A stretch of DNA of 64,000 nucleotides from an archaeon (lineage in GTDB: Archaea; Nanobdellota; Nanobdellia; Pacearchaeales; GW2011-AR1): assembly GCA_021107855.1 (NCBI GenBank), contig JAIORZ010000006.1, forward strand, positions 32,480 through 96,479, written 5' to 3'. Made by a program: the position numbers and the translations under genes. Of this stretch, positions 7,703 to 64,000 are shown one piece after another; the stretch's first letter is position 1, and the number at the start of each line of letters is the position of its first letter. Below the pieces are notes generated by a model. That model saw only the letters and a program-made list of their open reading frames with translations, ran no database searches and had not been told where the DNA came from.

Positions 7703-7713
7703 ATAAGATAGAA

Positions 7714-8945: not shown

Positions 8946-9043
8946 TTTTTGGTAGGAAAGATTTTTAAATGGAATTTTTCTTGGTTTGATAGGATAGAGA
9001 TGTCCGAGTGTACAGCGCTGAAGAGTTCTGTAATTTTAAGACG

Positions 9044-9597: not shown

Positions 9598-9601
9598 ACT
9601 T

Positions 9602-10138: not shown

Positions 10139-10139
10139 G

Positions 10140-11574: not shown

Positions 11575-11706
11575 TGAAATTAAAAATTTCATCGGGGGTG
11601 GGTATTTGGTATTCGGACGCTTCGCTGGTCGGGGCTTGGCGAATTGAATTAGGGAATAAATTTGGGAGTATAAACTTATAAACTGATAATTTGATAAAAT
11701 ATTAAG

Positions 11707-38680: not shown

Positions 38681-38994
38681 TTTATTTCCTCTTCTATTTC
38701 TTTAATGAGTTTTTGGAGCATTTTATAATCTCGTTTTTTGTATGTTGATTTAAAAATTTTGATTTTGGATGGTAATAATATCAATTTTGATTCCGCAATC
38801 ATCGCCTTTCTTTTTTCAATTTCCCGCACTTTAGACTCTAATTCTAAGAGTTTTAGGTCTAATTTTGAAGCTACGAGATATTTTAAACTTTCTGTTTTGT
38901 CCTCGTAGTTTTGTAATTTTCGGACTTTTTTATAATGTTTTTTATCTATAATCTTTTTAGAGATTCTTCTTATTTTTTTGAATTCTTTTTTCAT
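38665..38994 (-). CDS. small basic coiled-coil protein (109 aa)
   Basis: K/R-rich N-terminus, LKLLELESKVREIEKRKAMIAESK helix; start overlaps the ATPase stop. Confidence 0.4.
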   Translation of the reverse strand: MKKEFKKIRRISKKIIDKKHYKKVRKLQNYEDKTESLKYLVASKLDLKLLELESKVREIEKRKAMIAESKLILLPSKIKIFKSTYKKRDYKMLQKLIKEIEEEIKCLIS

Positions 38995-44370: not shown

Positions 44371-44675
44371 GCTCTGAGATAGATTGTTATTGATGAATTT
44401 GTGTGGATTTCGTAGTCTTTGTTTGGTTCGATTTGGAAGTTGGTGCCGACGCCACCGAGGACGTTTATGTATCCGAATGTTTGGCCGTATTGATATGTTG
44501 TGATTGATTGGATTTGTGGGTGTTCTTCAACTAGTTGGTTTGCGTATATTATTGGGAAATTTTCTTGGATTGTGAGATTGTTTCTGCCTGGGTTTAGGCT
44601 GACGCTTAGTGGGTTTTCGGCTATTATCGTTGTTGCGGATAAAATAAGTAGGATTGCGAATAGTTTGGGCGTCAT
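44367..44675 (-). CDS. small secreted protein (102 aa)
   Basis: Signal peptide MTPKLFAILLILSATTIIA; last gene of a minus-strand operon. Confidence 0.45.
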   Translation of the reverse strand: MTPKLFAILLILSATTIIAENPLSVSLNPGRNNLTIQENFPIIYANQLVEEHPQIQSITTYQYGQTFGYINVLGGVGTNFQIEPNKDYEIHTNSSITIYLRA

Positions 44676-47934: not shown

Positions 47935-47944
47935 TTTATATTTA

Positions 47945-49114: not shown

Positions 49115-49268
49115 CTTTTATATCGAGGGTTAATTTATTTGTTTGAAGATTGAATTTGATTACGACCTCTTGTCCTTCGTCTAGTTCGAGGGTGTCTACT
49201 ATGGCTTTTGGGATTTTAACCCTATATCCTTTTTGGATTTTTCCGTCTTTGAAAATCATCTCTTTCAT
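49104..49268 (-). CDS. SpoVT/AbrB-like small DNA-binding protein (54 aa, below the ORF-track cut-off); overlaps the start of the family A gene
   Basis: MKEMIFKDGKIQKGYRVKIPKAIVDTLELDEGQEVVIKFNLQTNKLTLDIKDGK matches the AbrB/MazE swapped-hairpin pattern. Confidence 0.5.
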   Translation of the reverse strand: MKEMIFKDGKIQKGYRVKIPKAIVDTLELDEGQEVVIKFNLQTNKLTLDIKDGK

Positions 49269-49354: not shown

Positions 49355-50158
49355 TTAAATTAATGAAGAAACATAGATTTCTAGGACTGCGGAAATTATT
49401 AGAAGGAATATTGATATTGCCAAAAGAGATATTATGTCGATTACGATTCGTCTGATTTTGTTTTTGTTTGTTAGGTCGCCTTTGATGAATGCGAAATAGA
49501 GGATTCCGCCGGCGATGCTTGCGAGGATGTAGGCTAGGATTTCGGGGATTCCGTGGATGAAGTATTTTGCGAATGCGACTGGGAGTGCGATTAGTCCGAA
49601 GGTTTCTCTTGATATTGTGCCGATTACGAATCCCATTACGCTGGCGTTCCAGGCTAAGATGTAGATTACTCCGGCGCCGAAGAAGAGTGCGAAGACGAGG
49701 GAGATTAGGACGATGTTTAGATTGTTTGTGAAGATTTGGACTATTGAGGAGGTGGGTGATATGGCGTTTCCTGTGATGAGTTTTATTTGTTGGATGGATG
49801 CACTTTGTAGTTCGAAGACCGTGGCGGAGGTTTCGGCTGGGAGGAGGAATGTCCATAAGACTGAGGATATTGTGAAGCCGATAAATAGGGAGAGAATTAA
49901 TATTGCTATCGGTTTGTGTTGTTTTAATAGCCATTTTTCTGAATTCCAGTTGTTTTCTTTTTTCTCTTCCATTTTGATTGCGCCTTGGACTACGTAGAGA
50001 CAGGAGAGCGTGGTTAGGAAGATGATTGCTAGGGATGCGTGGTCTTTGAAAATCCAGAGTCCGAGGAAGACTGAGAGGGATGAGTAGAATATGCCGATGA
50101 GGATGATTTCGAATGGGTGGCGTTCGGCCTTTTGTGGGTTGAAGAGGAGGTCTAGCAT
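49355..50158 (-). CDS. SpoIIM-like (DUF95) polytopic membrane protein
   Basis: Six TM helices; NNLNIVLISLVFALFFGAGVIYILAWNASVMGFVIG fits the DUF95/SpoIIM core. Confidence 0.6.
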   Translation of the reverse strand: MLDLLFNPQKAERHPFEIILIGIFYSSLSVFLGLWIFKDHASLAIIFLTTLSCLYVVQGAIKMEEKKENNWNSEKWLLKQHKPIAILILSLFIGFTISSVLWTFLLPAETSATVFELQSASIQQIKLITGNAISPTSSIVQIFTNNLNIVLISLVFALFFGAGVIYILAWNASVMGFVIGTISRETFGLIALPVAFAKYFIHGIPEILAYILASIAGGILYFAFIKGDLTNKNKIRRIVIDIISLLAISIFLLIISAVLEIYVSSLI

Positions 50159-50197: not shown

Positions 50198-52108
50198 TTA
50201 TGTGTGAAAAATATAGGACCAAAATTTGTCAAACCAATTCATGAATTTGTCTTTTAAGCTTAACTTGCTTTTTTCTGCGAAGATGAAAAATTCGGATAAG
50301 GGCTCATCTGACTCGAATTCATATTTTACTATTTCGTTTTCTGAGGATATCGCTCTACCTGTTATTGGTGAGAATTTTCCTTTTTTTCTTGTGAAGAATT
50401 TTATATTCTTGTAATCATTTTTTTCTAAGAAAGTTTTGTTTACTTCGTATTCAAATTTTATTTTTCCTCTTTCACTTGAATTCATGTTTGTTTCTATTGT
50501 GTACGATTTTATGTATTTGAAACTTCTATTAAAATTCCCTTCGTAGATAAATTTGAATAAATTAAATGATGCTTTTTCTTTTAGAATTTTTGAATAAAAT
50601 GCTACCCTCACATCTTCGTCTTTTATTATTAGTGGGAAGTTCTTTGTTGCTTTTGAAAAGTTTTTTGGGATATATTTGAATGGGAGGGACTTGGAAGAAG
50701 CTCCGCCTGAATTTCCTGAGTTACTTCTCTGAAAAAATGGGGGCACATAATTGTAAACTGTGGTGGTGGTTTCTTCTAAAATATTATTTTCTAATTCGCT
50801 TATGAATGAAAAATCTCCTGATATCGAAGGTGATATGGTATATTCAAAATTAAAATTTGATCCTGATAAGTCCCAAATGATTACATTGTAATTTGAAGTT
50901 GAAGACTCGACTCTTCCATCATTAGAAATTGAGGTGATTTCAAATTCTATTGGAACATATTCTTTGAACTCTAAATTTGAAACTTCTGAGGATAGCTTTC
51001 CTTTTAAAGAAATTTTTGTGTTTTTTCCGTTTTTTAATTTGAAATTCAAATTTTTTTCAAAATCAAATTTTTCTATCATTTGAAAAGAAACTTCATTTGA
51101 AAAATTACAATCAAAATAAAAATTTTCGTCTTTCAAATTTAAAGGTTCGTTGAAATTTATTATTTGGTTTTCAAAAGATTTTTTTAGAAGGATTTTGTTT
51201 TCTGGTATGAAGGAATATATTCCAAAATCGCATGTTCTTAGTTTTGGTTTTGGTCTTATTTTATAACTGAAATTGAATGATTCTGTGTTTATGTTTTTCC
51301 ATTCTATGCTTGAATATCCATCTTCTAAAAATATGAATCCTGAATCTGAAACTTCGAAAACTTCGAATTCGCTTGGGATAAAATCAGTTACTGAAAAACT
51401 TCCGTCTGATTTTGTGCCTGAAAATATGACTAAGAATTCGTCGGGAGATGATGAGAATAAACTTTTTTCGTAATTAACATATTTCTCAGTTGTTGATGGA
51501 AAAATCATGTCTCTTGATGCTCCTTTTAGTCTTTCTCCTGTCTGGCAGTCTGTTACAAAAATTAATTCGTTGTTCCCATAATCTCCTTGTAGCTCTTTCT
51601 TATAGTCACAACCAGATTCGCATAATTGTTCATAAGAATTGCTTTCTTTAAAATAAAAGTTACAATCATCGAAAACATTTACTTCCAATGTGAAATTTTT
51701 ATCTTTGGAAATTATTAATTTTTTATTTGGTTGTTTAAGTTGTACTACTTCACGAAATTCCATTTTGGAAAATATATTATAATCTTCTTGGTTTAATATC
51801 ATACTTACTGGCCCGGCGGCGAATCCGTTTTCAAAATCTAGAATTTCTGCTTGAAGAATTGAGCCTGTTGAGAAAATTGTATTTCCTCCGATTCTTGAAT
51901 TTAGAAAAGAATATCTGTGTCTATCTGGACTTACTAAAACTTCTACATAATCATTTACATTATCTACATTATAAACGAAAACGTTTTGCCAATTTGGGTT
52001 GATATTTCCTTCGAAGAAAACTTCGCCGCCTATGATTTGTGCTGATACTGGTAGCAATAGTGATGTGGTTAGAACTATCAATATTAGTTTTTTTATTGTT
52101 GTGTCCAT
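50198..52108 (-). CDS. secreted 636-aa protein, unknown function; start overlaps the giant gene stop by 16 nt
   Basis: Signal peptide LILIVLTTSLLLPVSAQ; F/N/K/S-rich beta protein; no TM anchor. Confidence 0.55.
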   Translation of the reverse strand: MDTTIKKLILIVLTTSLLLPVSAQIIGGEVFFEGNINPNWQNVFVYNVDNVNDYVEVLVSPDRHRYSFLNSRIGGNTIFSTGSILQAEILDFENGFAAGPVSMILNQEDYNIFSKMEFREVVQLKQPNKKLIISKDKNFTLEVNVFDDCNFYFKESNSYEQLCESGCDYKKELQGDYGNNELIFVTDCQTGERLKGASRDMIFPSTTEKYVNYEKSLFSSSPDEFLVIFSGTKSDGSFSVTDFIPSEFEVFEVSDSGFIFLEDGYSSIEWKNINTESFNFSYKIRPKPKLRTCDFGIYSFIPENKILLKKSFENQIINFNEPLNLKDENFYFDCNFSNEVSFQMIEKFDFEKNLNFKLKNGKNTKISLKGKLSSEVSNLEFKEYVPIEFEITSISNDGRVESSTSNYNVIIWDLSGSNFNFEYTISPSISGDFSFISELENNILEETTTTVYNYVPPFFQRSNSGNSGGASSKSLPFKYIPKNFSKATKNFPLIIKDEDVRVAFYSKILKEKASFNLFKFIYEGNFNRSFKYIKSYTIETNMNSSERGKIKFEYEVNKTFLEKNDYKNIKFFTRKKGKFSPITGRAISSENEIVKYEFESDEPLSEFFIFAEKSKLSLKDKFMNWFDKFWSYIFHT

Positions 52109-55100
52109 GCTGAATCTTGAGTTACACTGATTTCGTAGCCTTCCTCCATAGTTATATTAAAATTTGTTCCTAAAGGTATACAGCCAAACCAGAAGCAAAC
52201 CTCACCTAAATAACCCTGGCTAATCTGGAATTCTGGGTCCCATCTAGTGACAGCATCTTCACCTAAGAGACTTGCTGTTAATTCTTGAGCATTTGTCATG
52301 GTGGTTCCTGCTGTCATACTTATCCAATTTTTATTCATTCTCGTTCCAGTTTCGTCATAGACTAATGGTATTTGTATTGGGTCGTAGACTACCCCTACTC
52401 CGGACCAATTGACTTGAGAAGATTCACTTACGTTTAAACTTATTTCATATCCAGCTCCCGCGACCAATTCAAAATTACATGCCGTGTCTGTGCATGAGAT
52501 AGTTTCTGGGCAGCTAAAGGTATTACAAGTTACTTGCTTTTGGCTGCTTTTGTTTAATTGTGAAACCGCTACTGCTCCTATTATTTCATTTAATGTATCA
52601 TTTGCATTTTTCAAATAGGTAAAATTTGTGGGAAATGCTATCCAGTTTCTATTTTTAATAGAATGGACTGCGCTTGTGTTATGCTTAAGTCCATAGACAT
52701 GAGCTCCGAAGGTGTAGTCGCTTATGTTTGTTCCAGATGGGTTCCATGCTTCAACTTTGTAGAATCTTCTTTTGTTTCCTGAGAATGTATCGTCTGTATA
52801 ATTTAGCTCTGTGGTTTCGTTCATTAGGGTGAAATCTGTGACGTTTGGGCTTGAATATACTTTGTATTTTACTACTTCTAAAGATTCGTTCCATTCTAGG
52901 ATAATTGAGCCTGTTCCGTTATTTGCACTTTGTGTTATGTTCATAAATTCTGGCATACTTGGAGGAAGGAATGAACTGAAAGTATAATTTGTCGATGAGT
53001 CATTGTTCCCGTAAATATCAAAGCAAATCACAGACCAATTATAATAGTTACTTGTTCCGACGTCTACCATTGAGAAGTTGTTTTCAACTTCTGCGTTTAC
53101 TGAATAGATTGTTTGGTTTAAATGCCAGCCGCCATTCCAGGTCCCGTAAAGAGAACAGTTGGTCATATTGCTTTCGTCGTCAATTGTAAAATTGAATGGT
53201 CCTACTGTGTGACTTGTATAATTATAATTGTCTATTGGGGAAGTTAGGTTGATTGTTGGGCTGTTTAAATCTTTTATTTCAACTGCAAACCAGGAGGTTG
53301 TTCCTGCAGAGCTTCCGACTCCTTTTTGTAACGAAAGAGATGTTGTGTTTTTTATTGCTTGTGTCACGAATGCGTTTGCATAGGTGGTTGTGGCTCCGTC
53401 GTTGTCATTTGAATGTATATTAAATGACCTCTCGGTATTTATTAGATTGTGTTGTAAATTTATTATCTGTTCTGAACTAGAAATTAAATGGTTATAATCT
53501 TCTCTTTGGGAATTGAATAAATCTGAGGTTATAACGAAGTAATTTATTGATGCGTTTCCTGATGTTCCTCTACGATTAAATATTAAATTTGATGAATCTG
53601 AAAAATTTCCTTTGATGAATGAATCTTCTACGCTGTCATCGCCGATTAAATTATCTGAAAATATTATGAATGATTCATTTAAGTTTACCGCCGAAATTGA
53701 AACTGCTCCGCTGTCTGAATTCCCGTCTGTTATAATTGTGTTTCCCGATTGAACGTCTGTATTGTCCCAACTTACAACTTGCCAAGATAGTACCCCCGAA
53801 GAAGTCCCATTATCTCGCCTGAATACTACATTTGAATCGTCGATGAATTCGCCCGTAAAGAAACCTTCTACGTTGTCTGCTGAGTTCCCGGAGGAAAGTT
53901 TACTGTACACAACTACGAAACTGTTGCTCAAATTAACTTGGCCTATATTTAATGAAAGATTTGCCTCGTAAGAAAAGCTTATCTCTCCTCGCTGTACTTC
54001 GATATCTGGACCACTTATTAAGTTCCAATCTACAATTGCACCTGCGCCTGTATTATAATTTGAGAATGTTACTTCGTTGCTTTTTGAAAATTTGCTTATT
54101 ATTTGTAAAGTGTCGGGGCCATTATCGGAAGCTCTAGAGGTATGTAAAATGAAAGATTTGCTCATGTCCGTTATTTCAATTGTTTCTGTTGCGTTCCCGT
54201 CCACGAATGTTGAGCCGCTTAAAACTTTGTAAGTTGGGGTTTCTATTAAGCTTGAATTTACAAAAAATGTTACGTTGCTTGAGTTCATGTACCCCATGGT
54301 GTCGTTGACATAAAGATTTATTGTGTGCCCCGTTTCGTCTACGAAGTTCATAGAGATGGATTGGCAATTTGGCAAAGTCGTGTTTGCTGCCCCATCGAGA
54401 CTATACCAGCAAGTGTCTAAGTGGACATCATAGACATCGTACTCTAGTCTGATTCCGTTATTATATGGGTAGGTTATGTTTTCTGGTGATGTTAAAACTA
54501 GAGTTGGGCTTGTTATATCAATTAGCGTTATGTTTCTTGTGGAAGTTACTCCGAAGTTGTTTGCGTAATCCCACACAATTATGTCGTAGTAGTATGTGTT
54601 GTTTTCTCCGGAAGCCGTGAAATTAATATCGTTTACTACTGAATAAAAAGTCGTCTCGTTAATTATTTGGCTATCGTTGTCATATAATCTATAGCTCATA
54701 TTTTTGAAATTAGCTTCTACAACATTTGAATCCACATAAATCCAGTCTCTTTCGAACTGGGAGCCAGAAGGTGCTGTTGAACCAGCGAAATCAACTAGTG
54801 GGGCAGTTTTATCTAGTGTTATTTTTCTTGTTGGTAGACTATTGGTTAATCCTGCTTTGTCGAAAATTGTTACGTTGTAAAAGTATTCGTCGTCGAATAA
54901 TCCTGTCCAGTTGATATTTTTTATGGAAGTGTTATAGGTTGTTGAATTGATTAGTCCTCCCCCATCATATAGGTTAAAAGTTATGTTGGCGAAATTTATT
55001 TCTGTTATAGTTGTGTTTACGAATACAAAATTTTGGCTGACATTTGCCGTGTCAATTTCTGTTCCTGTTGAATAAGATATTGTTGGCGCTATATTATCTA

Positions 55101-58100
55101 GTGTTATGATTCTCGTTTCGCTTGTGTTGACATTTTCTGCAGAATCCCAGACGGTCACGTTATAAAAATATTCGTCGTCTGAGAGGAGAGTCCAGTTAAT
55201 GTCTCTTTTTGAAGTTGAGAATGTGTAGGAATAAGCTTCTCCTTCCCCGTTAAAAAGTTTGAAGGTTATGTTCTCAAAATTTGTTTCGACTACTGAAGTG
55301 TTTAGATAAATATAATCCTGCGAGACATAAGTATTATTATTAAGGGTTAATGGTATGAAATCTATAGTTGGCAATGTCGTGTCTATTGTAATTGTGTAAT
55401 TTGTGGTATTGTATAAATTTCCTATTGTGTCTTCTGCTTGATAGAACCAAGTGTAAATTCCATCCAATAAGAATTCGTAGACTATGCCGACGGTCGCGCT
55501 TAAGACTCCGTTTAATGAAACTAATTGACTATAAACGAATCCTGTTTGATTATAAATGTATAAGATGACTTCTTTTAGTCCGTTATCGTCGCTGAAATTC
55601 CCTGTTAAATTTTGTGTTGCGTTATTTGTTATTGTGTTATCTGAAGGCGAAATTAGGTTTCCTCCTGGAGGAGTCGTGTCTAATAAAATTTCTCTTGTTG
55701 AACTTGAGCCGTTTCTATTCGCGGAATCGAAAACCGTAATATTATAATAATAGGTTCCGTCGTCTAATCCTGTAAAAGTGTAATTTCTTGTTGAGTCGTT
55801 GAACCATTGTGAGGAGACTAGTCCTGTTGAATTGTAGATATAGAATGTGATATTTTTGAAATTGTTTTCGATTATGCTGGAGTTTATGTAGATATAGCTT
55901 TGACTAACATTTGAATTATCTGGTAAAGTATTTGCGCCGAAATCTACAACTGGGTCTGTCACGTCGAACGTGATTGAATAATTTGAAACTGCCCACGTGT
56001 AGTAACCTAGGCTATCGTTACATTCTACATTCCAGATACTGGTTCCTTCTTCTGAAAGATTGAGTGTGAAATTGCCCGATGGTTTATTGCTGGCAGGGAC
56101 AAAAGTTATATTGATGTCATCTATTGACATATCGCTTCGATATCCTGAACCAGTTATACTTCTGAATCTTAATTTTATGTTTCCTTCATACTCTGAGAGA
56201 CTTCTTGAAATATAAATATAATCATTTGTCTGACCTGATTGGTTTTGTCCGACTTGGGACCAAATAGAATTCCATCCAGATGAGTCATTAATTTCTAAAT
56301 GGAGTGTCCCCATATCCGCTCCATACATATGGAACCAGAAGCTTACGTTGTAGTCGTTTGAATCTGCGTCGAGGTTTTCGCTTTCTACCACAGCTTCTGG
56401 GCTTCCTTGGTCAAATCCACAAGGTTGTCCAGATGTTGCTTCAATAAATATGAAATGGCCCGCTATGGTTCCTAGGGTATGGTCTTCTTCTGGACCTGTG
56501 CTTCCGGAAGGGGTTCCGTCATTATCTGCATTTCTTGACCAGTCGCAATCATCCCCTGTGCTTTGAGTCCAGTTATTCCAAGGACTGGCTGTTTCAAAAC
56601 TTTCATTTTCCCAGCCACTTTCTCCGATTACCCAATTATAATCTGTTTGATTTAAATGCCAAGTTCCGTTGAAATCTCCCCATAATGAACAACTTTGGGT
56701 TAAGTCTGGGTCTTCGGCGGTGTAATTGAAAAATACTTCTGTTGCGGCAGAATAAAACGTATCGTCTTCTGGAAGTAATAATTGGATTGCTGGACCTGTT
56801 GTAGAAACTAAGAATGTTACATTTTTGTAATTTAAATTTCCTAATGTGTCGTTTGCAAAGAAATGTAATGTATGTTGTCCGTCGCTGGTATTGAAAGTTT
56901 CTGAACCTGAACAAGATACTGTTGTGTTTGTCCCGTCGTCTAAATTATACCAGCAGGTATCTTCTCCTACTATGTTGTCATTTACATTATAGTCTAATGG
57001 TAGGCTAATATTGTATCCGTATGCTTTTGCTTTTGGATTAATAATTGCGATTGATGGACCTAGAAAATCTAGTCCAATTTTTCTAGTTTCTGTTTTATTA
57101 TAATTTTCGGCAGAATCATAAATTGAAACATTATACCAATATTCGTTGCTTGCTAAATTTGTGAAATTGATTTGTGTTATTTGGTTAGTGTAGGTTGTGC
57201 TGTTGACTTCTCCTGTTGAGTTGAATAAATAGAAAGTTATATTTTCGAAGTTGTTTTCAGTAACACTTGTGTTTACAAAAATCCAATTGTTTGTGTTATT
57301 TACTCCGTCATTTAATGTTAATGAAACAAATTCAATTAATGGGTTGGTGTTGTCTAGAATTATCGTTCTTGTCGTCGTGCTTCCGTCGTTTCCTGCTTTA
57401 TCGTACATTGTTGCATTATACCAATAATTCCCGTCTGGTAAACTTGTCCAGTTAAACTCTCTGGTTGTGTCTGTAAATGATTCTGTTGAGACTAGCCCTG
57501 TTGAGTTGTAAAGTGATAAACTAATATTTAAAAAATTGTCTTCGACTGAGCTTACTTTGAATTGCACCCAATCTCTTGCGAATGCCGTGTCGTTATCTTC
57601 TGTTGGAAACATATAAGATAATACTGGGTCGGTGTCATCTATTGTGATTGACCTTGTTGCTGTAGAATCGGATTTTCCAACTACGTCAAAAATTGTGACG
57701 TTATAATAGTAGAGTCCTTCGGATAACAGGTTCCAAGAAACGGTTCTACGTTTGTCGGTGAATGTGTTATTTGTAACAGGGGAATTTGTTTCGTTATATA
57801 GATAAAATGTAATGTTTTCTTCGTTGGCTTCTGTCACATTTACATAAACGGAAATTGTGTCTCCTGAAATGAACCCTTCATCTTCTTCGTTTTGAGATGA
57901 GAAATCTATAATTGGTGCTTGATTATCTAATGTTATGTTTCTTGTTTCGGTTGTATTTGAGTTTCCGGCTATGTCGTATGCTGTTACATTATAAAAATAT
58001 AATCCGTCGGAAAGTAATGTCCAGTTGATATCATGCGGGCCGAATGAATGACTGTATATTTGTCCTCCTGAATCATATAAATCGAATGTGACATTGTCTA

Positions 58101-61100
58101 AATTGTCTTCGACTACTGTTACATTTACATAAATGTTTTCCTGTTCTAGGATTTCCCCGCTGGGTTCGGTTCCAAATGTGTAGTTAATGAGTGGGAGGGT
58201 CAAATCTATGTTTAATGTGAAATTGCTCGTGTTATAAACATTGCCGACTGTATCCTCTACGCTGTAAAACCAATAATAAATTCCTTCGGATAAGAAATCA
58301 TAAATTAAGCCCACTGTTGCTGAAATTGCCCCACCCAATGCTTGGGATGCTGTGTAAATTAGATGACCTGTCTCGTTGAAGATATATAGAGTTGCGTTGA
58401 ATAGTCCAGTTGCATCGTTGAATGTTCCGGTTAGGTTTTGTGTTAAATTGTTTGTATATGAGTTGTCGGATGGGGATACTAAATTTCCCGTTGGTGCTGT
58501 TAAATCTAGATTGATGATTCTTGTTGTGGAGCTGCCATTACGATTGGCTTTGTCATATACTGTTATATTATATTTGTATACTCCGCTAGCTAAACTTGTG
58601 AAGTTGTATTCTCTTGTGTCGTCTGTGAACGATTGGCTCCATTCAAATGCTGTTGAGTTGTAAAGATAAAATGTTATATTCTTGAAATTGTTTTCTATCA
58701 CGTTCGCATCCATGAAGACCCAATTTCTTCCGACATCTGTATCGTTGTCTTCGGTTCCTCCTGCAAATAAAACTTGAGGGTCTGTTACGTCTACGGTGAA
58801 TGTGTAATTTTCTAAGGCGAAGGAATCGTAACCGATTGTGTCGTTGCATTCTACGTTCCATTTGTAACTTCCTTCTTCGGAGATTAAAACATCGAATGCT
58901 GTGAAATTTTGTTCGGCTCCAAAAATTATATTGGAATCATAATTTGCGATATGTTGATAAGATTGATTTATCCAGTTTGTGCTTCTGTTTGTTGAAGAGA
59001 TTCTTATTTCGTCCAATGTTCCAATAAAGTTATGAGCCAGATTGTCATCAAACACTGGATTTGCGTTTACAGATGCACCAATTCTGGCATTACCAGTTCC
59101 TGACAAACCATCACCCATTGTTATCGAGCTTATTAGTTCTCCATTAACGTAAAGGAATTGATCGTTTCCTGCACCTTTGTGACCACCGCAAACATAGTGC
59201 CATTGGTTATCTGCGTAACTAGCTGAAGTATTAATTGCATTGAAATTCCCGTTATAACATTCTGCATATCTAAATTCTCCTGCGGAAGTTACACCAAGCC
59301 CTGTACCGTCTGTTAACCCACCATCCTCTAATATTGTTCCCTGGTGTCCTGTTGAAAATTTTACCCATGCACAATATGTATGTGCTCCGTCTACGTTCCA
59401 CTCTGGGTTTGTTCCTAGATAATCTGAGCCATCGAAATAATCTGCTCCGCCAACAATACCTGGGGAGTCCATATTAGAGTCTGGGTCTATTCCATCTTCG
59501 GCATCGAAATTCCCGAGAGTGTCTAATGCTGTTCCGGATGTGTGGTCGAGATGGTAAACGCTTGTATATGATGAGCTCCAAACTGATGTTGCATTTTCGG
59601 CGTTTTCTGCGTTTGCATTTGCATAATACATACAAATTGTGTTTGCTCCTGTTGTTAGGCTTGGTATTTTTATCCAAACATTTGCGTTTGTTGCACTATA
59701 ATCTTCAATTTCATAATCTAATGAAGTTGAACCTTCTGAGAGGCATGTCCCTGAATAAAATAATAAATCTGAATAATCTCCTGTCTCTGTATGTGATGTT
59801 GATATGTTTAGATAGACCGGGAAATCTGTTAGTGTGGACGAGCCTGTATTTGAAATGTTTATATCTCTTCTATTTTCAAATCCAACATCGCTCCAGTTTC
59901 CGGTATATGTTTCATTGAGATGCCAACCTCCATTCCAGTCTCCGTATAAAGAACAGGCATCAACCCCATCTGGGTCTGTCGCTGCGAAACTAAAATTAAT
60001 ATTTGTTGCTTCTCCATAAAATGAGTCGTTGGATGGTGCAATTAATTCTATTGCTGGACCTGTAATTGAAATGAAGAATGTAACTGAATCTGAACCCATG
60101 TTTCCGAAAGTGTCGTTTGCGAAAAAGTAAATTGTGTGTGTGTCTACTGTTGTGTTGAATGTCGTTGCTGAGTTACAGGTAATGGATTGGTTTGCTCCTC
60201 CGTCTATATTCCACCAGCATGAATCTACGCTTGAAACTTGGTCTGATACTGTGTGCTCCAGGGGAAGGCTTTCGTTATACCCGTATGTTTTTGAGGTTGG
60301 TTTTGTAATTGTTACAATTGGACCTGCGCCATCTAGCCCTATTGAACGGGTTTCTGTCGAGTTTGTATTTCCTGCCCAATCGGTTACTGTGACGTTGTAA
60401 AGATAGTTTTCGTCTGGTAGACTTGTGAAATTAATTTCTCTTGTTGAATTTGTAAACGTCTGGCTGTCTACTAGCCCTCCTGAGTCGTATATGTCGAATT
60501 TTATTTCTTTAAAATTAGTTTCTGTTACGGAAGTATTGATGAATACCCAGTCTCGGTTTCTTATTGTCGCGTTATCTTCTGTTGGTGGGATAAACTCTAT
60601 GGTTGGGAAAGTAGTATCTAGTGTTATTGTTCTGGTGGAGGTTGTATCATTTTGGGATGCTTTGTCAAATATTGTTACGTTGTATTCGTAATTTCCGTCG
60701 GGCAATCCTGTAAAATTGTAAAAAGTTGTTTCCGGTGAATTGGTCTGGCTTTCTACTAGTCCTGACGTATTGTAAAGATTGAAAGTTATGTTGGATGGGT
60801 TTATTTCTGTGAAAGTTGTGTTAACGAAAATCCAGGTTTGGGATTTGTTTGCTGTATCATTTTCTGTTGGTGAGGCGAAATCTATGATTGGGTCTGTGTT
60901 GTCTATTGTTACTTTTCTGGTGTCTGTAGAGCCGGATAATGAAACTTTGTCAAAGACTGTTATATTATAATAATAAGTTCCTTCGGATAATAGGTCCCAA
61001 TTAATTGAACGACGAGAATCTGTATATGTTTTTGGGGCTCCTTCTGGGGATTTTGTTGCGCTGTATAAATAAAATGTGATATTTTCTTCGTTGGGTTCGG

Positions 61101-64000
61101 TAACGGTTACGTTCATGAAAATAGAGGTTCCTGTAAATACGCTGTTGTTTGCTGCTGAATTTGGTGCGAAAGAAACCGCTGGAGCAGTTGTATCTAAAAT
61201 TATTTGTCTTGTTGATGAATATCCTATGTTAGTTGCCAAGTCAACACTTGTTATATTGTAATAATAAACGTCGTCAGAAAGTAATGTCCAGTTAATTTCT
61301 CTGGTTGAGTCTGTGAATGTATTTGGTCCACGGATTTGGGAGCTTCCATTATATAAATTGAAAGTTACGTTGTTGAAATTCTTTTCGTAAATGCTGATAT
61401 TTACATAGACGAAATCCTGTAAAAGAACTGCTCCGTCGGTTTCGGTTGAGGGGATAAATGTGATTACTGGTTCGGTAGAATCTATTTCTATTGAGTTGGA
61501 TGTTGTGTTGTATTCGTTGTCGACTGAATCTCTGATTCTGTAGAACCATGTAAAAACGTCGTCGTATAGGAATGTGTAAACCTTGCCAATGGTTGCCTCT
61601 GTTAATCCTGCTAAATCTATTAAGAATGTGTAAACAACATGCCCTGTTGAATTTATGATGAATAACATTGCGTTTTTTAGTTCTACCGAGTCTGATACAT
61701 TTGCCGTGAAATTATGTGTTACGGAATTTGTAAAATGATTGTCTTCTGGAGAAATCAAAGTTCCACTTGGAAGTTCTGTGTCAATTTCTATTGACCGAGT
61801 TGATGAATTCCCCACTCTTCCTGCTTTATCGTAAACAGTTATATTGTAATAATAGGTTCCGTCGTTTAAGGATGAGAAAGTATGGTTTAATGTGCCGTCG
61901 GAATAGGTTCCGTTTTCAATGTTTATTCCGTTTTCGTATAAATTGAATGTTATATTATCTAGATTTGTTTCTGTTACATTCGCGTCGATGAAAATATAAT
62001 CTACTGCTACTCTGCTTGAATCGGGCAATGTCCCTGAGTCGAAATCTACAACTGGTGCTGTTAAGTCTATTCCAACCGAGTAGTTGTATAGGGCTGTTTC
62101 GTTTAATCCTAGTGTGTCGTTACATTTTACATTCCAATCGTAGTTTCCTTCTGTGGATAGATTGACTGTGAAATTTCCGTATTCTTTTGTTATTTTTGGG
62201 ATTAGTGTTATATTTGCTTCGTCGATGGAAATGTCGCTTGTATATGCTGTTCCGACTACGGCTCTTAGTCTCAGATTTATTTGACCGGAATATGAACCTA
62301 AGTTCACGACTGCTTCCTGCCAGTTGGCTCCTTCTGCGGATTGTTGTTGCCCCGAAAGATTCCATGTATTATTATGCCATCCGGTGCTGTCATTAACGTC
62401 CAAGGAAAGAGTTCCCATAGCTGCCCCATACATGTGATACCAGAATGATATTGTTATGTTGTATGTATCTGCGTCTAGAGAATCGCTTTCTATTGATGCC
62501 CAATGATTTCCTGTATCGTATTCACAATTTTGTCCGCTGGTTGCTTCGGTGAAAAGAAAGTCTGAGCTTCCGGAAGGACTTGGTCCGTAACCACCCGTTG
62601 GTCCGGTGCTTCCAGAAGGGGTGCTCGTGCTTCTCGTGTAGTCACATCCATTGGAATCTCCAACTAATGTCCAATTATCCCATGATGCTGATTCAAAATC
62701 TTCTAATTCTGAATTTTTGGTTCCGAAACTCCAGTTGTAATCTGTTTGATTTAGATGCCAGCCTCCATTCCAGGTTCCGTAGAGGGAACATGAACTGACC
62801 CCCTGGATATCTGTTGCTGAATAATTGAATAAGACTTCTGTTGTTGTTGGATAAATAGTATCGTTTTCTGGGTCTATTAAAGAAATTGCGGGACCGCCTG
62901 TTGAAATTAAAAATGTGACTGAATCCATCCCTACGTTTCCGAAACTGTCGTTTGCAAAATATTTTATTGTGCGCTGACCGTTTGATGTGTTGAAGGTTGT
63001 GGCTGTGTTGCATGTGATTGAATTGTTTGTTCCGTCGTCTATATTCCACCAGCATGAATCTAAGGAACTAATTGCATCTGTTGCGGTTGCGTTAAGGGGG
63101 AGATTTTTGTCTATTCCGTAAGCTTTTGGTTCTGGGTCTATAACATTTATGATTGGTCCTAATGTGTCTAACCCTATTGTTCTGGTTAAGCTAGTTCCCT
63201 TGTTTCCTGCTTTGTCGTAGACTGTTATATTATAATCGTACATTTCAGAAGCTAAACTATTGAATGTGTAATCTCTTGTTGAGTCTGTAAAACTTTGGGT
63301 GACTTCTCCGGATGACTCTGGGTATAAATGGAAAGTTATGTTTTGGAAGTTGATTTCTGTTATTGATGAGTTTATGAATACATAATCACAGCTGAAATTT
63401 TGATTGTCTGCCTCAGTTCCCTCTCCGAAAATAACAACTGGGTCAACATTATCTAAAGTTAGTTGTCTTGTTGGGCTAGATCCCATGTTCCCTGCTTTGT
63501 CCCAGGATGTTACGTTATAATAATAAACTGAATCTGTTAAACCTGGCCAGTTTATCGAGCGAACTGAATTGGCAAATGTTGTGTTGTCGATTAATCCTGA
63601 TGAATTGTATAAATGGAACGTTACGTTTACGAAGTTAGTTTCTGTGACTGTTACTTCTGCGAATATATAGTTACGGGGGAAATATGTATCGTCGTCTTCG
63701 GTTGAACCTGTATAAGTTACGACCGGTAATACATTATCTAAGGTTATGTTTCTCATGACACTTGTATTTGTGTTCCCGTAATCATCCCAGACGACTACCT
63801 CATAATAATATAATCCGTCGGAAAGTAATGTCCAGTTTAGGTAGTTTTGAGTATGGTCTAAAACAGATCTTTCGGGCTGCATTGATTCGTCGTATAAATA
63901 GAAAGAAATATTTTTGAAATTGTCTTCTATTACTGTTACGTTTATGAAAATATTGGTGCCTTTCTTTATTGTGCCGGCTGGCGAGGTTCCTGTTGTGTAT
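52093..64000 (-). CDS. giant (>3968 aa; N-terminus beyond the window end) secreted multidomain protein (adhesin-like). Tens of ~100-aa Ig-like repeats, two MAM domains, a LamG/ConA-like domain, recurring Cys-pair modules, C-terminal FN3 domain
   Basis: The frame stays open upstream of the first in-window Met through 63999 (...TNIFINVTVIEDNFKNISFYLYDESMQPERS...). Repeat signature NITFNLYNSSG...YYYNVTVFDKAGN. MAM: FWFHMYGADMGTLHLEI...GDMSIDDINIT and FWYHMYGAAMGTLSLDV...SIDEANIT. LamG: QWHYVCGGHKGAGNDQFLYVNGE...GTLDEIRIS. FN3: GSIILEWNES...RFYKVEAWN. Confidence 0.85.
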   Translation of the reverse strand, partial: YTTGTSPAGTIKKGTNIFINVTVIEDNFKNISFYLYDESMQPERSVLDHTQNYLNWTLLSDGLYYYEVVVWDDYGNTNTSVMRNITLDNVLPVVTYTGSTEDDDTYFPRNYIFAEVTVTETNFVNVTFHLYNSSGLIDNTTFANSVRSINWPGLTDSVYYYNVTSWDKAGNMGSSPTRQLTLDNVDPVVIFGEGTEADNQNFSCDYVFINSSITEINFQNITFHLYPESSGEVTQSFTDSTRDYTFNSLASEMYDYNITVYDKAGNKGTSLTRTIGLDTLGPIINVIDPEPKAYGIDKNLPLNATATDAISSLDSCWWNIDDGTNNSITCNTATTFNTSNGQRTIKYFANDSFGNVGMDSVTFLISTGGPAISLIDPENDTIYPTTTEVLFNYSATDIQGVSSCSLYGTWNGGWHLNQTDYNWSFGTKNSELEDFESASWDNWTLVGDSNGCDYTRSTSTPSGSTGPTGGYGPSPSGSSDFLFTEATSGQNCEYDTGNHWASIESDSLDADTYNITISFWYHMYGAAMGTLSLDVNDSTGWHNNTWNLSGQQQSAEGANWQEAVVNLGSYSGQINLRLRAVVGTAYTSDISIDEANITLIPKITKEYGNFTVNLSTEGNYDWNVKCNDTLGLNETALYNYSVGIDLTAPVVDFDSGTLPDSSRVAVDYIFIDANVTETNLDNITFNLYENGINIENGTYSDGTLNHTFSSLNDGTYYYNITVYDKAGRVGNSSTRSIEIDTELPSGTLISPEDNHFTNSVTHNFTANVSDSVELKNAMLFIINSTGHVVYTFLIDLAGLTEATIGKVYTFLYDDVFTWFYRIRDSVDNEYNTTSNSIEIDSTEPVITFIPSTETDGAVLLQDFVYVNISIYEKNFNNVTFNLYNGSSQIRGPNTFTDSTREINWTLLSDDVYYYNITSVDLATNIGYSSTRQIILDTTAPAVSFAPNSAANNSVFTGTSIFMNVTVTEPNEENITFYLYSATKSPEGAPKTYTDSRRSINWDLLSEGTYYYNITVFDKVSLSGSTDTRKVTIDNTDPIIDFASPTENDTANKSQTWIFVNTTFTEINPSNITFNLYNTSGLVESQTNSPETTFYNFTGLPDGNYEYNVTIFDKASQNDTTSTRTITLDTTFPTIEFIPPTEDNATIRNRDWVFINTSVTETNFKEIKFDIYDSGGLVDSQTFTNSTREINFTSLPDENYLYNVTVTDWAGNTNSTETRSIGLDGAGPIVTITKPTSKTYGYNESLPLEHTVSDQVSSVDSCWWNIDGGANQSITCNSATTFNTTVDTHTIYFFANDTFGNMGSDSVTFFISITGPAIELIAPSNDSFYGEATNINFSFAATDPDGVDACSLYGDWNGGWHLNETYTGNWSDVGFENRRDINISNTGSSTLTDFPVYLNISTSHTETGDYSDLLFYSGTCLSEGSTSLDYEIEDYSATNANVWIKIPSLTTGANTICMYYANANAENAENATSVWSSSYTSVYHLDHTSGTALDTLGNFDAEDGIDPDSNMDSPGIVGGADYFDGSDYLGTNPEWNVDGAHTYCAWVKFSTGHQGTILEDGGLTDGTGLGVTSAGEFRYAECYNGNFNAINTSASYADNQWHYVCGGHKGAGNDQFLYVNGELISSITMGDGLSGTGNARIGASVNANPVFDDNLAHNFIGTLDEIRISSTNRSTNWINQSYQHIANYDSNIIFGAEQNFTAFDVLISEEGSYKWNVECNDTIGYDSFALENYTFTVDVTDPQVLFAGGTEDNDTDVGRNWVFMDANVIENNFKNITFYLYNSTAFEWSQSFTDDTREYNFTSLASGVYKYNITVYDKANRNGSSTTRIINLDLTAPTGNLVSPSDNSYTNNLTQNLTGTFNDATGLFNATLYIFNETGHLIYTASQALGGAISATVGLIYDFLSEGIYYWFYSVEDTVGNVYNTSNFTLNIDLTLPLINYTFGTEPSGEILEQENIYVNVTVVEDNLDNVTFDLYDSGGQIYSHSFGPHDINWTLLSDGLYFYNVTAYDIAGNSNTTETRNITLDNQAPIIDFSSQNEEDEGFISGDTISVYVNVTEANEENITFYLYNETNSPVTNNTFTDKRRTVSWNLLSEGLYYYNVTIFDVVGKSDSTATRSITIDDTDPVLSYMFPTEDNDTAFARDWVQFKVSSVEDNFLNISLSLYNSTGLVSTESFTDTTREFNWTSLPDGNYWYNATMYDKAGNDGSTTTRTIILDNTNPLIEFVSLTLNDGVNNTNNWIFVNTSVTENNFENITFYLFNSTGEVNSTTYTNQITQINFTNLASNEYWYNVSIYDSAENYNKTETRKIGLDFLGPSIAIINPKAKAYGYNISLPLDYNVNDNIVGEDTCWYNLDDGTNTTVSCSGSETFNTSDGQHTLHFFANDTLGNLNYKNVTFLVSTTGPAIQLLLPEDDTFYSAATEVFFNYTAEDPDLTQSCSLWGDFNGTWHLNQTDYNWVIGESGWENESFETASPWNNWTQSTGDDCDWSRNADNDGTPSGSTGPEEDHTLGTIAGHFIFIEATSGQPCGFDQGSPEAVVESENLDADSNDYNVSFWFHMYGADMGTLHLEINDSSGWNSIWSQVGQNQSGQTNDYIYISRSLSEYEGNIKLRFRSITGSGYRSDMSIDDINITFVPASNKPSGNFTLNLSEEGTSIWNVECNDSLGYYTWAVSNYSITFDVTDPVVDFGANTLPDNSNVSQSYIYINSSIIENNFKNITFYIYNSTGLVSSQWFNDSTRNYTFTGLDDGTYYYNITVFDSANRNGSSSTREILLDTTPPGGNLISPSDNTITNNATQNLTGNFSDDNGLKEVILYIYNQTGFVYSQLVSLNGVLSATVGIVYEFLLDGIYTWFYQAEDTIGNLYNTTNYTITIDTTLPTIDFIPLTLNNNTYVSQDYIYLNTSVVETNFENITFKLFNGEGEAYSYTFSTSKRDINWTLLSDDEYFYNVTVWDSAENVNTSETRIITLDNIAPTISYSTGTEIDTANVSQNFVFVNTTITEINFANITFNLYDGGGLINSTTYNTSIKNINWTGLFDDEYFYNVTIFDKAGLTNSLPTRKITLDKTAPLVDFAGSTAPSGSQFERDWIYVDSNVVEANFKNMSYRLYDNDSQIINETTFYSVVNDINFTASGENNTYYYDIIVWDYANNFGVTSTRNITLIDITSPTLVLTSPENITYPYNNGIRLEYDVYDVHLDTCWYSLDGAANTTLPNCQSISMNFVDETGHTINLYVNDTMGYMNSSNVTFFVNSSLIETPTYKVLSGSTFVDGNATETIEITDMSKSFILHTSRASDNGPDTLQIISKFSKSNEVTFSNYNTGAGAIVDWNLISGPDIEVQRGEISFSYEANLSLNIGQVNLSNSFVVVYSKLSSGNSADNVEGFFTGEFIDDSNVVFRRDNGTSSGVLSWQVVSWDNTDVQSGNTIITDGNSDSGAVSISAVNLNESFIIFSDNLIGDDSVEDSFIKGNFSDSSNLIFNRRGTSGNASINYFVITSDLFNSQREDYNHLISSSEQIINLQHNLINTERSFNIHSNDNDGATTTYANAFVTQAIKNTTSLSLQKGVGSSAGTTSWFAVEIKDLNSPTINLTSPIDNYNYTSHTVGPFNFTIDDESNMTNCSLYGTWNGGWHLNQTIYSVNAEVENNFSMVDVGTSNYYNWSVICFDIYGNNDSSTNYTFSSFLPPSMPEFMNITQSANNGTGSIILEWNESLEVVKYKVYSSPNVTDFTLMNETTELNYTDDTFSGNKRRFYKVEAWNPSGTNISDYTFGAHVYGLKHNTSAVHSIKNRNWIAFPTNFTYLKNANDTLNEIIGAVAVSQLNKSSQKQVTCNTFSCPETISCTDTACNFELVAGAGYEISLNVSESSQVNWSGVGVVYDPIQIPLVYDETGTRMNKNWISMTAGTTMTNAQELTASLLGEDAVTRWDPEFQISQGYLGEVCFWFGCIPLGTNFNITMEEGYEISVTQDSAWTQQ

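Follow-up and report, generated by a model that had tools for sequence, protein, structure and literature searches.

A giant Ig-like repeat protein of a DPANN archaeon with MAM and LamG domains that appear nested and exchanged among related strains

Which protein decides what a DPANN archaeal cell sticks to? Host recognition and attachment by uncultured freshwater and groundwater DPANN lineages are largely unknown. Pacearchaeota appear strongly host-attached (bioRxiv 10.1101/2020.05.14.094862), and LamG proteins and giant surface proteins have been proposed as host-attachment factors of DPANN archaea (PMC10266531, PMC5498576). The locus described here offers a concrete candidate specificity determinant. 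It lies in a 64,000-nt stretch of DNA (the window), which a giant minus-strand gene enters at the edge, with its N-terminal part outside. The window also holds an archaeal DUF655-S13-S4-RpoD cluster whose RpoD is 78-80% identical to those of Pacearchaeota-type MAGs, and sequence comparison assigns the genome to a DPANN archaeon of Pacearchaeota/Woesearchaeota type. In Pacearchaeota-type relatives, comparison of ribosomal-protein cluster synteny shows no giant gene out to 10 kb from RpoD. We put at about 65% the probability that the gene encodes an N-glycosylated extracellular fibrillar adhesin, built of a constant scaffold and replaceable specificity cassettes.

52093..63999, minus strand: giant ORF (3,968 codons plus stop; the C-terminal ~69% of a protein that measures 5,769 aa in the closest relative, P0156)

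Translated, this interval reads through 3,968 codons to a terminal TAA without an internal stop, and the frame is still open at the window edge, as a preliminary description of this DNA had reported. An exact-DNA search with the window's final 46 bases found no match in genome or metagenome contig collections, so the N-terminus is inferred from relatives. P0156 is ~90% identical to the ORF, and its residue 1785 corresponds to window residue 1, which leaves 1,784 residues upstream; the complete protein would thus have about 5,800 aa and ~640 kDa. A second relative, P0012 (4,871 aa), is colinear at 51% identity. Each starts with a hydrophobic, signal-like stretch that leads into a low-complexity linker, and P0156 has a start codon. 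The visible protein is rich in threonine (12%), asparagine (11%) and serine (10%), with a computed pI of 4.05, and it carries 208 NxS/T sequons, against 93 ± 8 in shuffled sequences (z = 14.7). Across the 3,968 visible residues there is no transmembrane segment at the threshold used (maximum 19-aa hydropathy 1.56), no visible membrane anchor and, in a Pfam scan, no ATPase family match. A C-terminal sorting signal of the archaeosortase/PGF-CTERM type, with its transmembrane helix, is absent; the C-terminus, ...EEGYEISVTQDSAWTQQ, is hydrophilic.

Most of the protein consists of Ig-like extender repeats punctuated by modules with a pair of cysteines.

63148..63999, minus strand: three Ig-like extender repeats (aa 1-284; the window edge truncates the first; E 1e-30 to 1e-36 with our repeat HMM; Pfam Big_13 / Big_3_2)
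62881..63147, minus strand: Cys-pair module 1 (aa 285-373; beta-sandwich-like, two conserved Cys)
60313..62046, minus strand: six Ig-like extender repeats (aa 652-1229; the second of variant type)
60049..60312, minus strand: Cys-pair module 2 (aa 1230-1317)
57049..58770, minus strand: six Ig-like extender repeats (aa 1744-2317)
56785..57048, minus strand: Cys-pair module 3 (aa 2318-2405)
54499..55944, minus strand: five Ig-like extender repeats (aa 2686-3167)
54217..54498, minus strand: Cys-pair module 4 (aa 3168-3261)

From a single unit we built a repeat HMM, which recovers 20 strong repeats of ~98 aa each (E 1e-21 to 1e-37), with weaker Ig-like modules besides, and the protein matches Pfam Big_13 at 113 bits. 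The repeats anticipated in the preliminary description are therefore real and close to the ~100 aa it gave, but DNA repeat families start 285-291 nt apart, or at multiples of this, and with the repeat HMM included the period is 285-294 nt, not 297-300 nt. Repeat pairs are 18-59% identical at the protein level (mostly 30-55%), the super-units compared are ~54-59% identical at the DNA level, and Tandem Repeats Finder reports no DNA-level array, so the duplications are old and not a recent expansion, as had been supposed. The proposed three-fold super-repeat is likewise recovered by self-comparison: position-matched repeats are the most alike across super-units (variant repeats 5, 11 and 17 at 44-59% identity), and the module order Ig-IgVar-Ig4-Cys-host{insert} recurs along the protein. 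Beyond the three units described earlier there is a fourth, truncated one, which ends in an orphan 317-aa domain (X) and has no nested insert.

The element that closes each of the three full units sets this protein apart from a plain repeat stalk.

62731..62880, minus strand: host Ig 1, N-terminal half (aa 374-423; motif WNGGWHLNQT)
62185..62730, minus strand: insert 1, MAM in host Ig 1 (aa 424-605; PF00629 48.3 bits)
62047..62184, minus strand: host Ig 1, C-terminal half (aa 606-651)
58771..60048, minus strand: host Ig 2 (aa 1318-1368 plus 1695-1743, split by insert 2)
58918-59895, minus strand: insert 2, DUF2341 plus Laminin_G_3 (aa 1369-1694; PF10102 45.7 bits, PF13385 57.6 bits)
55945..56784, minus strand: host Ig 3 (aa 2406-2456 plus 2640-2685, split by insert 3)
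56083-56631, minus strand: insert 3, MAM (aa 2457-2639; PF00629 72.1 bits; cassette apparently replaced in P0156)
52966..53265, minus strand: uninterrupted host-type Ig (aa 3579-3678; WNGGWHLNQT; 9-aa loop at the insert site of the other three copies)

Profile searches place both MAM domains and the LamG domain above the Pfam gathering cut-offs. The two MAM inserts score 48.3 and 72.1 bits (cut-off 26.4; profile positions 2-152 and 3-153 of 158; 108 bits for the whole protein), and the LamG domain scores 57.6 bits (cut-off 27.6; positions 3-150 of 151), which agrees with the two MAM domains and one LamG domain of the preliminary description. That reading had missed a DUF2341 domain (45.7 bits, cut-off 23.4; positions 1-79 of 84) immediately preceding LamG. 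It had also placed each special domain after a Cys-pair module; the Cys-pair modules are real, but the special domains appear to sit inside a split Ig-like domain. We aligned the intact host-type Ig (aa 3581-3682) with the N- and C-terminal halves of each split unit, joined after removal of the insert, and it aligns end to end at 36-42% identity, with 9 residues where the split copies carry inserts of 182-326 aa. The alignments thus indicate that the MAM and DUF2341-LamG units are nested in a loop of an Ig-like host domain. AlphaFold2 gave unusable models both for host Ig plus MAM (two alignment rows, pLDDT 40) and for the C-terminal 714 aa (three rows, pLDDT 31); the nesting and the folds are read from sequence.

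Animal MAM domains have four conserved cysteines. The inserts have two each (C452/C492 and C2485/C2527), and both carry FWYHMYG and SDxSIDD-type motifs that also occur in MAM arrays such as P0006. A word-indexed homology search with the host-Ig-plus-MAM unit returned no matches, and the family was found by a full HMMER scan. The full-library scan gave 5,822 matches (not sorted by taxon), so the occurrence of MAM beyond animals is no novelty. The nearest of these beyond the giant-protein family include long MAM arrays of uncertain origin.

How constant is this arrangement among relatives? Domain order is identical in eight (P0012, P0019, P0075, P0156, L001, L007, L008 and L013) over the part that each covers, and a looser relative (P0020) has the same modules. 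Over 3,277 codons compared with P0156, the scaffold has a dN/dS of 0.08 (dS 0.75) and is under strong purifying selection. All other modules are 79-98% identical between the two proteins, whereas insert 3 is only 37% identical and is flanked by modules at 92% and 98%. At the nucleotide level, codon-aligned identity drops sharply at the borders of this insert, to 46-56% in aa 2451-2650, against 75-94% in all other 50-codon windows but one (72.7% at aa 2901-2950). The inserts of further relatives differ as well. Site 1 holds MAM in the window ORF and P0156, and a 160-aa Cys-rich domain in P0012, L007, L008 and L013. Site 2 holds LamG subtypes at 72-74% or 34-35% identity, and site 3 holds one of four MAM subtypes (37-75% identity) or the Cys-rich domain. 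The MAM of insert 1 is 67% identical to the site-3 MAM of P0012. L007, the closest by scaffold among the four relatives compared, is yet different at all three insert sites.

These comparisons indicate that related strains exchange binding domains like cassettes, with whole domains replaced at three defined positions between genes that are otherwise ~90% identical. All the sequences compared are metagenome assemblies of a repeat-rich gene, and several relatives' contigs break inside it. An independent assembly (L001) is identical to the window over aa 1993-3968, which argues against a chimaeric assembly. No further MAM, LamG or Cys-rich coding sequence that might serve as a silent donor occurs in any frame of the window. 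We also considered the gene as the target of a diversity-generating retroelement. No repeat pair above ~80% identity involves it, save a 42-nt intragenic fragment of an Ig repeat (93%, family D11), and there is no reverse transcriptase among the window ORFs scanned.

The genes downstream keep their order among relatives at ~50% protein identity.

50198..52108, minus strand: 636-aa protein with a signal peptide-like N-terminus (16-nt overlap between its start and the end of the giant gene)
49355..50158, minus strand: SpoIIM-like polytopic membrane protein, 267 aa (PF01944, 59 bits)
44367..49268, minus strand: conserved accessory genes (54 aa; 389 aa; 404 aa; 683 aa; 102 aa)
38991..42635, minus strand: 1,214-aa membrane-anchored HerA/FtsK/TraD-superfamily ATPase (CarboxypepD_reg domains; far end of the conserved locus)

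The stop codon of the giant gene (52093-52095) lies within the start of the 636-aa gene (ATG at 52108). The same neighbour follows the giant gene in L001, L002, L007, L008, L009, L013 and L014, and the 16-nt overlap itself is repeated in L001, L002, L007, L013 and L014. Together with the signal-like N-terminus and the PF01944 match, this confirms the predicted order of an overlapping secreted-protein gene followed by a SpoIIM-like gene. The latter is the best conserved of the cluster (72-77% identity in distant relatives). Among the accessory proteins, that of 389 aa is secreted and sequon-rich, those of 404 and 683 aa each have a signal peptide and a C-terminal transmembrane segment, and the secreted 102-aa protein has a GTNFxIExxxxYEI motif in common with the C-terminus of the giant protein. 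The ATPase gene comes last in the syntenic locus of L001 and L014, and a truncated homologue follows a homologue of a 238-aa gene in L011. It may be part of the giant-protein system.

How might such a protein work? Export would proceed by a Sec-type N-terminal signal or anchor of the kind seen in the orthologs. A row of some 30 beta-sandwich domains, made up of Ig-like extenders, Cys-pair modules and the FN3-like module, would form a stalk more than 100 nm long, bearing three regularly spaced host Ig domains, each split by a lectin-type domain that buds from its loop: MAM, DUF2341 plus LamG, and MAM. The three side-mounted domains would be the ligand-binding sites, probably for glycans or glycoproteins of a host cell. 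Recombination would swap them between strains and between sites while purifying selection holds the scaffold. The giant gene stands at the head of a conserved operon, whose secreted and membrane proteins probably serve as anchors, maturation factors or partners of the fibre. As related strains exchange its binding domains, the giant protein probably determines what the cell sticks to. Host range, strain-level population structure and the generality of the split-domain design thereby become directly testable.

In bacterial RTX adhesins, the projection of ligand-binding domains from split Ig-like domains is a well-established design (PMC12077191, PMC10865825). AhLap of Aeromonas hydrophila, FrhA of Vibrio cholerae and MpIBP of Marinomonas primoryensis share with the giant protein a megadalton-scale, acidic, repeat-rich make-up and a long tandem chain of Ig-like extenders, and lectin- or CBM-type domains bud sideways from split Ig-like domains in both, here at the level of sequence (PMC12077191, PMC10865825). 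However, the giant protein is archaeal and very rich in sequons, its orthologs carry an N-terminal Sec-like signal, and it ends in a conserved Cys-containing domain. The GGxGxD motif of RTX nonapeptide repeats occurs nowhere in the 3,968 visible residues, and so there is no sign of type I secretion. Its binding domains are spread along the stalk, one for every six or so extenders plus a Cys module, rather than gathered at the far tip, and its cassettes are MAM, DUF2341 plus LamG, and a novel Cys-rich domain. We detected no sequence homology to RTX adhesins. The best reading is that the giant protein would work like the RTX split-domain adhesins without belonging to that family; if so, split-domain projection of a ligand-binding domain appears in an archaeon with neither a sequence link nor a secretion-system link to the bacterial proteins.

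Other parallels lie closer in phylogeny or in single domains. The 'SPEARE' giants of Nanohaloarchaeota (SVXNc_0300, BNXNv_0298) resemble the giant protein in several respects (PMC10266531): they too belong to DPANN archaea, start with a Sec signal and contain Ig-like/FN3-like arrays; they too are strain-specific within genomes that are colinear elsewhere, and they have an ATPase gene nearby, which here is 9.5 kb away; and a role in host contact is proposed for them. Published descriptions give them beta-propellers, a membrane segment at the C-terminus and a VirB4/TraG-like ATPase domain fused to the protein; none of these was found in the 3,968 residues here. DPANN LamG surface proteins (Mia14, Ca. 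Nanohalococcus SVXNc_0801 and others) share the ConA-like/LamG jelly-roll and are secreted or membrane-bound, with a predicted role in recognition of host glycoproteins (PMC5498576, PMC10266531), whereas the single LamG here follows a DUF2341, alternates with MAM and appears to lie within an Ig domain of a much larger scaffold. Both MAM inserts match the family profile (PF00629; meprin, A5/neuropilin, RPTP-mu) above its Pfam cut-off along almost its full length, but differ from animal MAM in having two cysteines each, in being archaeal and in their apparent nesting within another domain. DUF2341 also occurs in large predicted adhesins of type IV pilus loci (PilY1-type; archaeal arCOG03508) (PMC4858521). 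Here it is part of a nested cassette, and the locus showed no recognisable gene for a pilin, a pilus ATPase or a prepilin peptidase.

Could the ligand be something other than a host cell? The modules might be carbohydrate-binding tethers to polysaccharide, biofilm matrix or particles, or serve in polymer capture. LamG/ConA-like and MAM domains are generic lectin-type binding folds, the origin of the long MAM arrays closest to the family is uncertain, and RTX adhesins of the same split-domain design bind ice and diatoms as well as many cell types. We nevertheless consider such a role rather unlikely: the strain-level replacement of a single cassette on a strongly conserved scaffold is more readily explained by a changing biological partner than by a bulk substrate, the lineage appears to be host-dependent and host-attached, and no glycoside hydrolase or transporter gene linked to the locus was found. 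Far less probable still is that the protein plays no part in adhesion, being a structural, S-layer-like envelope component, an artefact of assembly or the product of a pseudogene. Archaeal S-layer proteins are likewise acidic, beta-rich and N-glycosylated, but the giant protein is much larger than is typical of them and has no S-layer family match in Pfam. Repeat-rich genes misassemble easily, as the broken contigs of relatives illustrate; against this, two independent assemblies agree exactly and eight relatives keep the domain order in frame. As far as the visible sequence goes, the pseudogene that the preliminary description had allowed for is ruled out by the dN/dS value, and the reading frame is open here and intact over 5,769 codons in P0156.

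The ATPase raises another question: is the giant protein the outer arm of a conduit that carries DNA or effectors on cell contact, formed with the SpoIIM-like protein, the TM-anchored proteins and the 1,214-aa ATPase? The position of the ATPase gene at the close of the syntenic locus, its product's two transmembrane segments and weak matches to CedD, TraD, TraC and HerA, and the nanohaloarchaeal giants, which have VirB4/TraG-like ATPases both as a fused domain and encoded downstream (PMC10266531), all point that way. Yet those matches are all far below family cut-offs, the gene is 9.5 kb from the giant gene and past two opposite-strand genes, and no further secretion-system component was recognised in the locus; with neither a transmembrane segment nor an ATPase domain in the visible residues, we regard a conduit as quite improbable. 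A bolder extension of the adhesin reading is speculative and, in our judgement, unlikely: the giant gene and ~10 conserved neighbours would make up a hitherto undescribed apparatus for host contact in Pacearchaeota/Woesearchaeota-type DPANN archaea, in which the fibre sets host range via three recombining lectin cassettes and an ATPase module moves material across the contact. The neighbours counted in such an apparatus include the translationally coupled 636-aa protein, the SpoIIM-like protein, the TM-anchored 404- and 683-aa proteins, the 102-aa protein and the HerA/TraD-like ATPase.

Turning from function to the terminal region of the protein, the fourth unit is followed by modules of a different kind.

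53266..54216, minus strand: orphan domain X (aa 3262-3578, 317 aa; predicted all-beta)
52684..52965, minus strand: FN3-like module (aa 3679-3772; weakly supported)
52096..52683, minus strand: C-terminal domain CT (aa 3773-3968, 196 aa; conserved, orphan)

This region had been described as an FN3 domain and a ~250-aa terminal domain. It instead comprises four pieces: X, the intact host-type Ig, the FN3-like module and CT. Support for FN3 is weak, as Pfam fn3 matches none of seven family members, and a seven-sequence profile (A4) searched against PDB gave top matches that are all FN3 but weak (E=0.0023 to 0.33). CT has a Cys cluster, C..FSCP....CT.T.CNF, and an invariant ...YE.SV.....WTQ end. 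Searches of Pfam, NCBIfam and PDB sequences gave nothing significant for X, CT, the Cys-rich insert or the accessory proteins. X does resemble the N-terminal domain of the relatives (hhalign E=0.019 over 299 colinear columns), and phmmer matches it at P0156 residue 1298, which is suggestive of a second copy of X in the N-terminal region of the full-length relatives.

The minus-strand translation of positions 52093..63999 gives 3,968 stop-free codons in a frame that does not close before the window edge at base 64000, as reported in the preliminary description. The product is rich in threonine (12%), asparagine (11%) and serine (10%), is acidic (490 D+E vs 146 K+R; computed pI 4.05) and, over its 3,968 residues, has no membrane-helix-grade hydrophobic segment at the threshold applied. 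It contains 208 N-x-S/T sequons vs 93 ± 8 over 1,000 same-residue shuffles (z = 14.7). An HMM grown from one repeat recovers 20 strong Ig-like repeats of ~98 aa each, named Big_13 / Big_3_2 in Pfam. DNA repeat families are spaced at 285-291 nt or multiples, not at the 297-300 nt originally proposed. Protein-level identity among repeats is 18-59% (most pairs 30-55%), the super-units compared are ~54-59% identical at the DNA level, and Tandem Repeats Finder detected no tandem DNA array in the giant gene; the duplications are therefore old, in line with the earlier view.

The special regions were scanned against Pfam as separate segments. Two are MAM domains (PF00629; 48.3 and 72.1 bits vs a cut-off of 26.4, nearly the whole profile covered), and the middle region is DUF2341 (45.7 bits vs 23.4) followed by Laminin_G_3 (57.6 bits vs 27.6), so the two MAM and one LamG assignments made initially hold. 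Every MAM or DUF2341+LamG unit is bracketed by two short host segments, the N-side one ending C-S-L-Y/W-G-x-W/F-N-G-G/T-W-H-L-N-Q/E-T and the C-side one beginning G/Q-N-F-T...W-N-V-x-C-N-D. Near the C-terminus (aa 3581-3682) is an intact host domain, with just nine residues between the two segments; it can be aligned over its full length with the concatenated halves of each of the three split copies (36-42% identity). This alignment places the inserts of 182, 326 and 183 aa within a single loop of an Ig-like ‘host’ domain. Thus, the order MAM, LamG, MAM stands, but these domains are nested in a split host Ig instead of following the Cys-pair module (Cys) in tandem.

With Ig and IgVar denoting ordinary and variant Ig-like extender repeats, the module order is Ig3 - Cys - host{MAM} - Ig - IgVar - Ig4 - Cys - host{DUF2341+LamG} - Ig - IgVar - Ig4 - Cys - host{MAM} - Ig - IgVar - Ig3 - Cys - X - host(intact) - FN3-like - CT. 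A beta-sandwich module is ~4 nm long, and the ~29 such modules in the window would give a visible stalk of >100 nm. The FN3 domain proposed previously has no Pfam match in the giant ORF product or six relatives; with a seven-sequence profile, the top PDB matches are solved FN3 domains, albeit weak ones (E = 0.0023). Searches of Pfam and PDB sequences gave no relatives for two other domains:

aa 3262-3578, domain X, 317 aa
aa 3773-3968, C-terminal domain CT, 196 aa

A full HMMER scan of a host-Ig+MAM profile against 1.84 billion representatives returned 5,822 MAM-containing matches, only four of which span the whole nested unit (P0012, P0019, P0020 and P0075). P0012 is complete (4,871 aa) and colinear with the giant ORF at 51% identity. 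The complete 5,769-aa P0156, in the same 90% cluster as the C-terminal fragment P0001, is ~90% identical to the giant ORF. Its residue 1785 corresponds to window residue 1, so the window ORF is missing ~1,780 residues. Seven metagenome loci hold further family members. The N-termini of P0156 and P0012 (M-N-K-K/R-G-x-I-E-x-K-D-F-G, a ~17-residue hydrophobic stretch and a low-complexity S/N/E/P/Q-rich linker) look like a Sec signal or signal anchor. Residues 1-1784 of P0156, encoded beyond the window at 5253-10604 of its locus L014, include, besides the signal-like segment and S/N/E/P-rich linker, a MAM-like region and a few Ig repeats. A putative second copy of X (phmmer match at residue 1298) lies here too, as does a match to the Nup98-type autopeptidase S59 domain that falls below threshold (23.6 bits vs a cut-off of 28.4).

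The scaffold is the same, domain for domain, in the parts covered by P0012, P0019, P0075, P0156 and the loci L001, L007, L008 and L013; P0020 is a looser relative made of the same modules. The inserts differ as follows:

Site 1: MAM in the window and P0156; a 160-aa Cys-rich domain, without a Pfam family, in P0012, L007, L008 and L013
Site 2: DUF2341+LamG in the window; 72-74% identical in L008 and L013, 34-35% in P0012 and L007
Site 3: MAM in the window; four MAM subtypes in relatives, 37-75% identical to the window copy, and the Cys-rich domain in L007

This is not the pattern that vertical descent would predict, given that L007, which has the closest scaffold of the four relatives in the module-wise comparison (60-89% per module), has a different insert at every site, and that the window site-1 MAM and the P0012 site-3 MAM share 67% identity while their two host domains are only 59% identical. 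Between P0156 and the window, modules are 79-98% identical with the sole exception of insert 3 (37%); the host halves on either side of it reach 92% and 98%. Nucleotide identity in 50-codon windows drops to 46-56% at aa 2451-2650; outside this interval it is 75-94% in all but one window (72.7%, aa 2901-2950). Excluding inserts, dN/dS is 0.08 over 3,277 codons (dS = 0.75), which indicates that the scaffold is under strong purifying selection and the giant gene functional. L001, an independent assembly (Logan), matches the window exactly through insert 3. No silent donor cassette was found elsewhere in the window, nor was any DGR-type repeat.

The giant-gene stop overlaps by 16 nt the start of a gene for a 636-aa signal-peptide protein (NCBI MCD4771336.1, ‘hypothetical protein K8R30_02865 [archaeon]’), and a SpoIIM-like gene comes next, an arrangement described correctly from the outset. 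From there the locus reads, in order:

SpoIIM-like six-TM protein
54-aa protein
389-aa secreted protein, sequon-rich
404-aa and 683-aa proteins, both bearing a signal peptide and a C-terminal TM segment
44367-44675 (-), 102-aa secreted protein
two opposite-strand genes
38991-42635 (-), 1,214-aa ATPase with two TM segments, HerA/FtsK/TraD superfamily, at the locus end

L001, L002 and L014 preserve this order in full and likewise end with the ATPase gene, their last gene being cut by the end of the locus; in L011 a homologue of the ATPase N-terminus is present. The stretch from the 636-aa gene to the 102-aa gene and first opposite-strand gene is kept in L008, L009 and L013 at ~50% protein identity. 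In L014 the giant gene comes first in the series, and a divergent CARDB gene lies before it. The 102-aa protein and the extreme C-terminus of the giant protein (52096-52200 (-), last ~30 residues) have in common the motif G-T-N-F-x-I-E-x4-Y-E-I (profile-profile E = 7e-5 over only 20 columns), which may be a docking or strand-exchange element. A similar motif, N-F-x-L-x5-Y-E-I, occurs once more within CT. The ATPase is laid out as TM - two CarboxypepD_reg domains - TM - P-loop ATPase (DUF87/HerA, FtsK), with weak matches to CedD, TraD, TraC and HerA.

The window also holds the archaeal cluster DUF655 - S13 - S4 - (S11, outside the scan) - RpoD (9602-12414 (+)) and a lone 5S rRNA gene (4059-4170 (+)). 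For RpoD, identity is 78-80% to MAGs with the labels Candidatus Pacearchaeota and ‘archaeon’, and 70-71% to those labelled Nanoarchaeota and Woesearchaeota; all are DPANN (Nanobdellati) lineages. The closest MAGs have no giant gene within 10 kb of the DUF655-RpoD cluster, and hence there is no synteny between this cluster and the giant loci.

What, then, is the giant protein? Bacterial RTX adhesins have been shown experimentally to consist of an Ig-like extender chain with ligand-binding domains that bud from ‘split’ Ig-like domains and project off the fibre axis (PMC12077191, PMC10865825), a design that the giant protein matches. However, it is archaeal, its orthologs have a predicted N-terminal Sec-type signal, its binding domains sit at intervals along the stalk, and no RTX repeats were found in the window ORF product; by sequence it is not a member of that family. 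For host attachment in DPANN archaea, the candidates usually named are LamG-domain proteins and giant surface proteins (PMC5498576, PMC10266531), and Pacearchaeota appear to be strongly host-attached cells (bioRxiv 10.1101/2020.05.14.094862). Based on the split-domain anatomy and these precedents, we read the giant protein as a glycosylated fibrillar adhesin, and we infer its location, glycosylation, ligand and anchored end. Its three lectin-type cassettes would set binding specificity, and recombination would exchange them.

The main alternative is that the protein binds matrix or substrate, not a host. Possibly, it forms with the ATPase a transfer apparatus in which it is an arm, but no ATPase is fused to it as in the nanohaloarchaeal examples, and the matches of the separate ATPase are weak. 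An S-layer protein, a pseudogene or an assembly artefact is unlikely in view of the protein's size, its conservation, the selection on it and the independent assemblies. Giant adhesins, DPANN LamG proteins, MAM domains in non-animals and split-domain display are all known singly. New are their combination in an archaeon, three nested cassettes at periodic positions along a scaffold that is strictly conserved, the clean replacement of cassettes at specific sites in genes that are otherwise near-identical, a conserved operon, and the orphan domains X, CT and the Cys-rich insert.

Elsewhere in the window, the first giant gene (19690-30696 (-), 3,668 aa) encodes an N-terminal TM/signal segment and a CARDB domain. 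It has Ig-like, Cys-module and host-Ig-like modules in common with the second (23-35% identity) and no MAM or LamG. Three paralogous sequon-rich secreted proteins (47945-49114, 14978-15958 and 16470-17462, all (-); 41-58% identical) lie one in the second giant gene's operon and two downstream of the first, so the two loci share accessory gene families. A four-member secreted family of ~240-260 aa (18277-19005, 17469-18233, 37044-37829 and 35561-36271, all (-); 29-61% identical) adjoins the first giant gene and the membrane ATPase; three of the four start with a signal peptide and QPFGANYTEV or similar, and the two members scanned have no Pfam family. Tandem 27-nt units (V-V-E-E-K-P-like; repeat family D16) occur at 11060-11127 and 42818-42885, in the S4 C-terminal tail and a 238-aa protein of the second giant gene's locus. 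A MacB-type ABC permease gene pair (5280-7702 (+); MacB_PCD + FtsX) shows 34% mutual identity.
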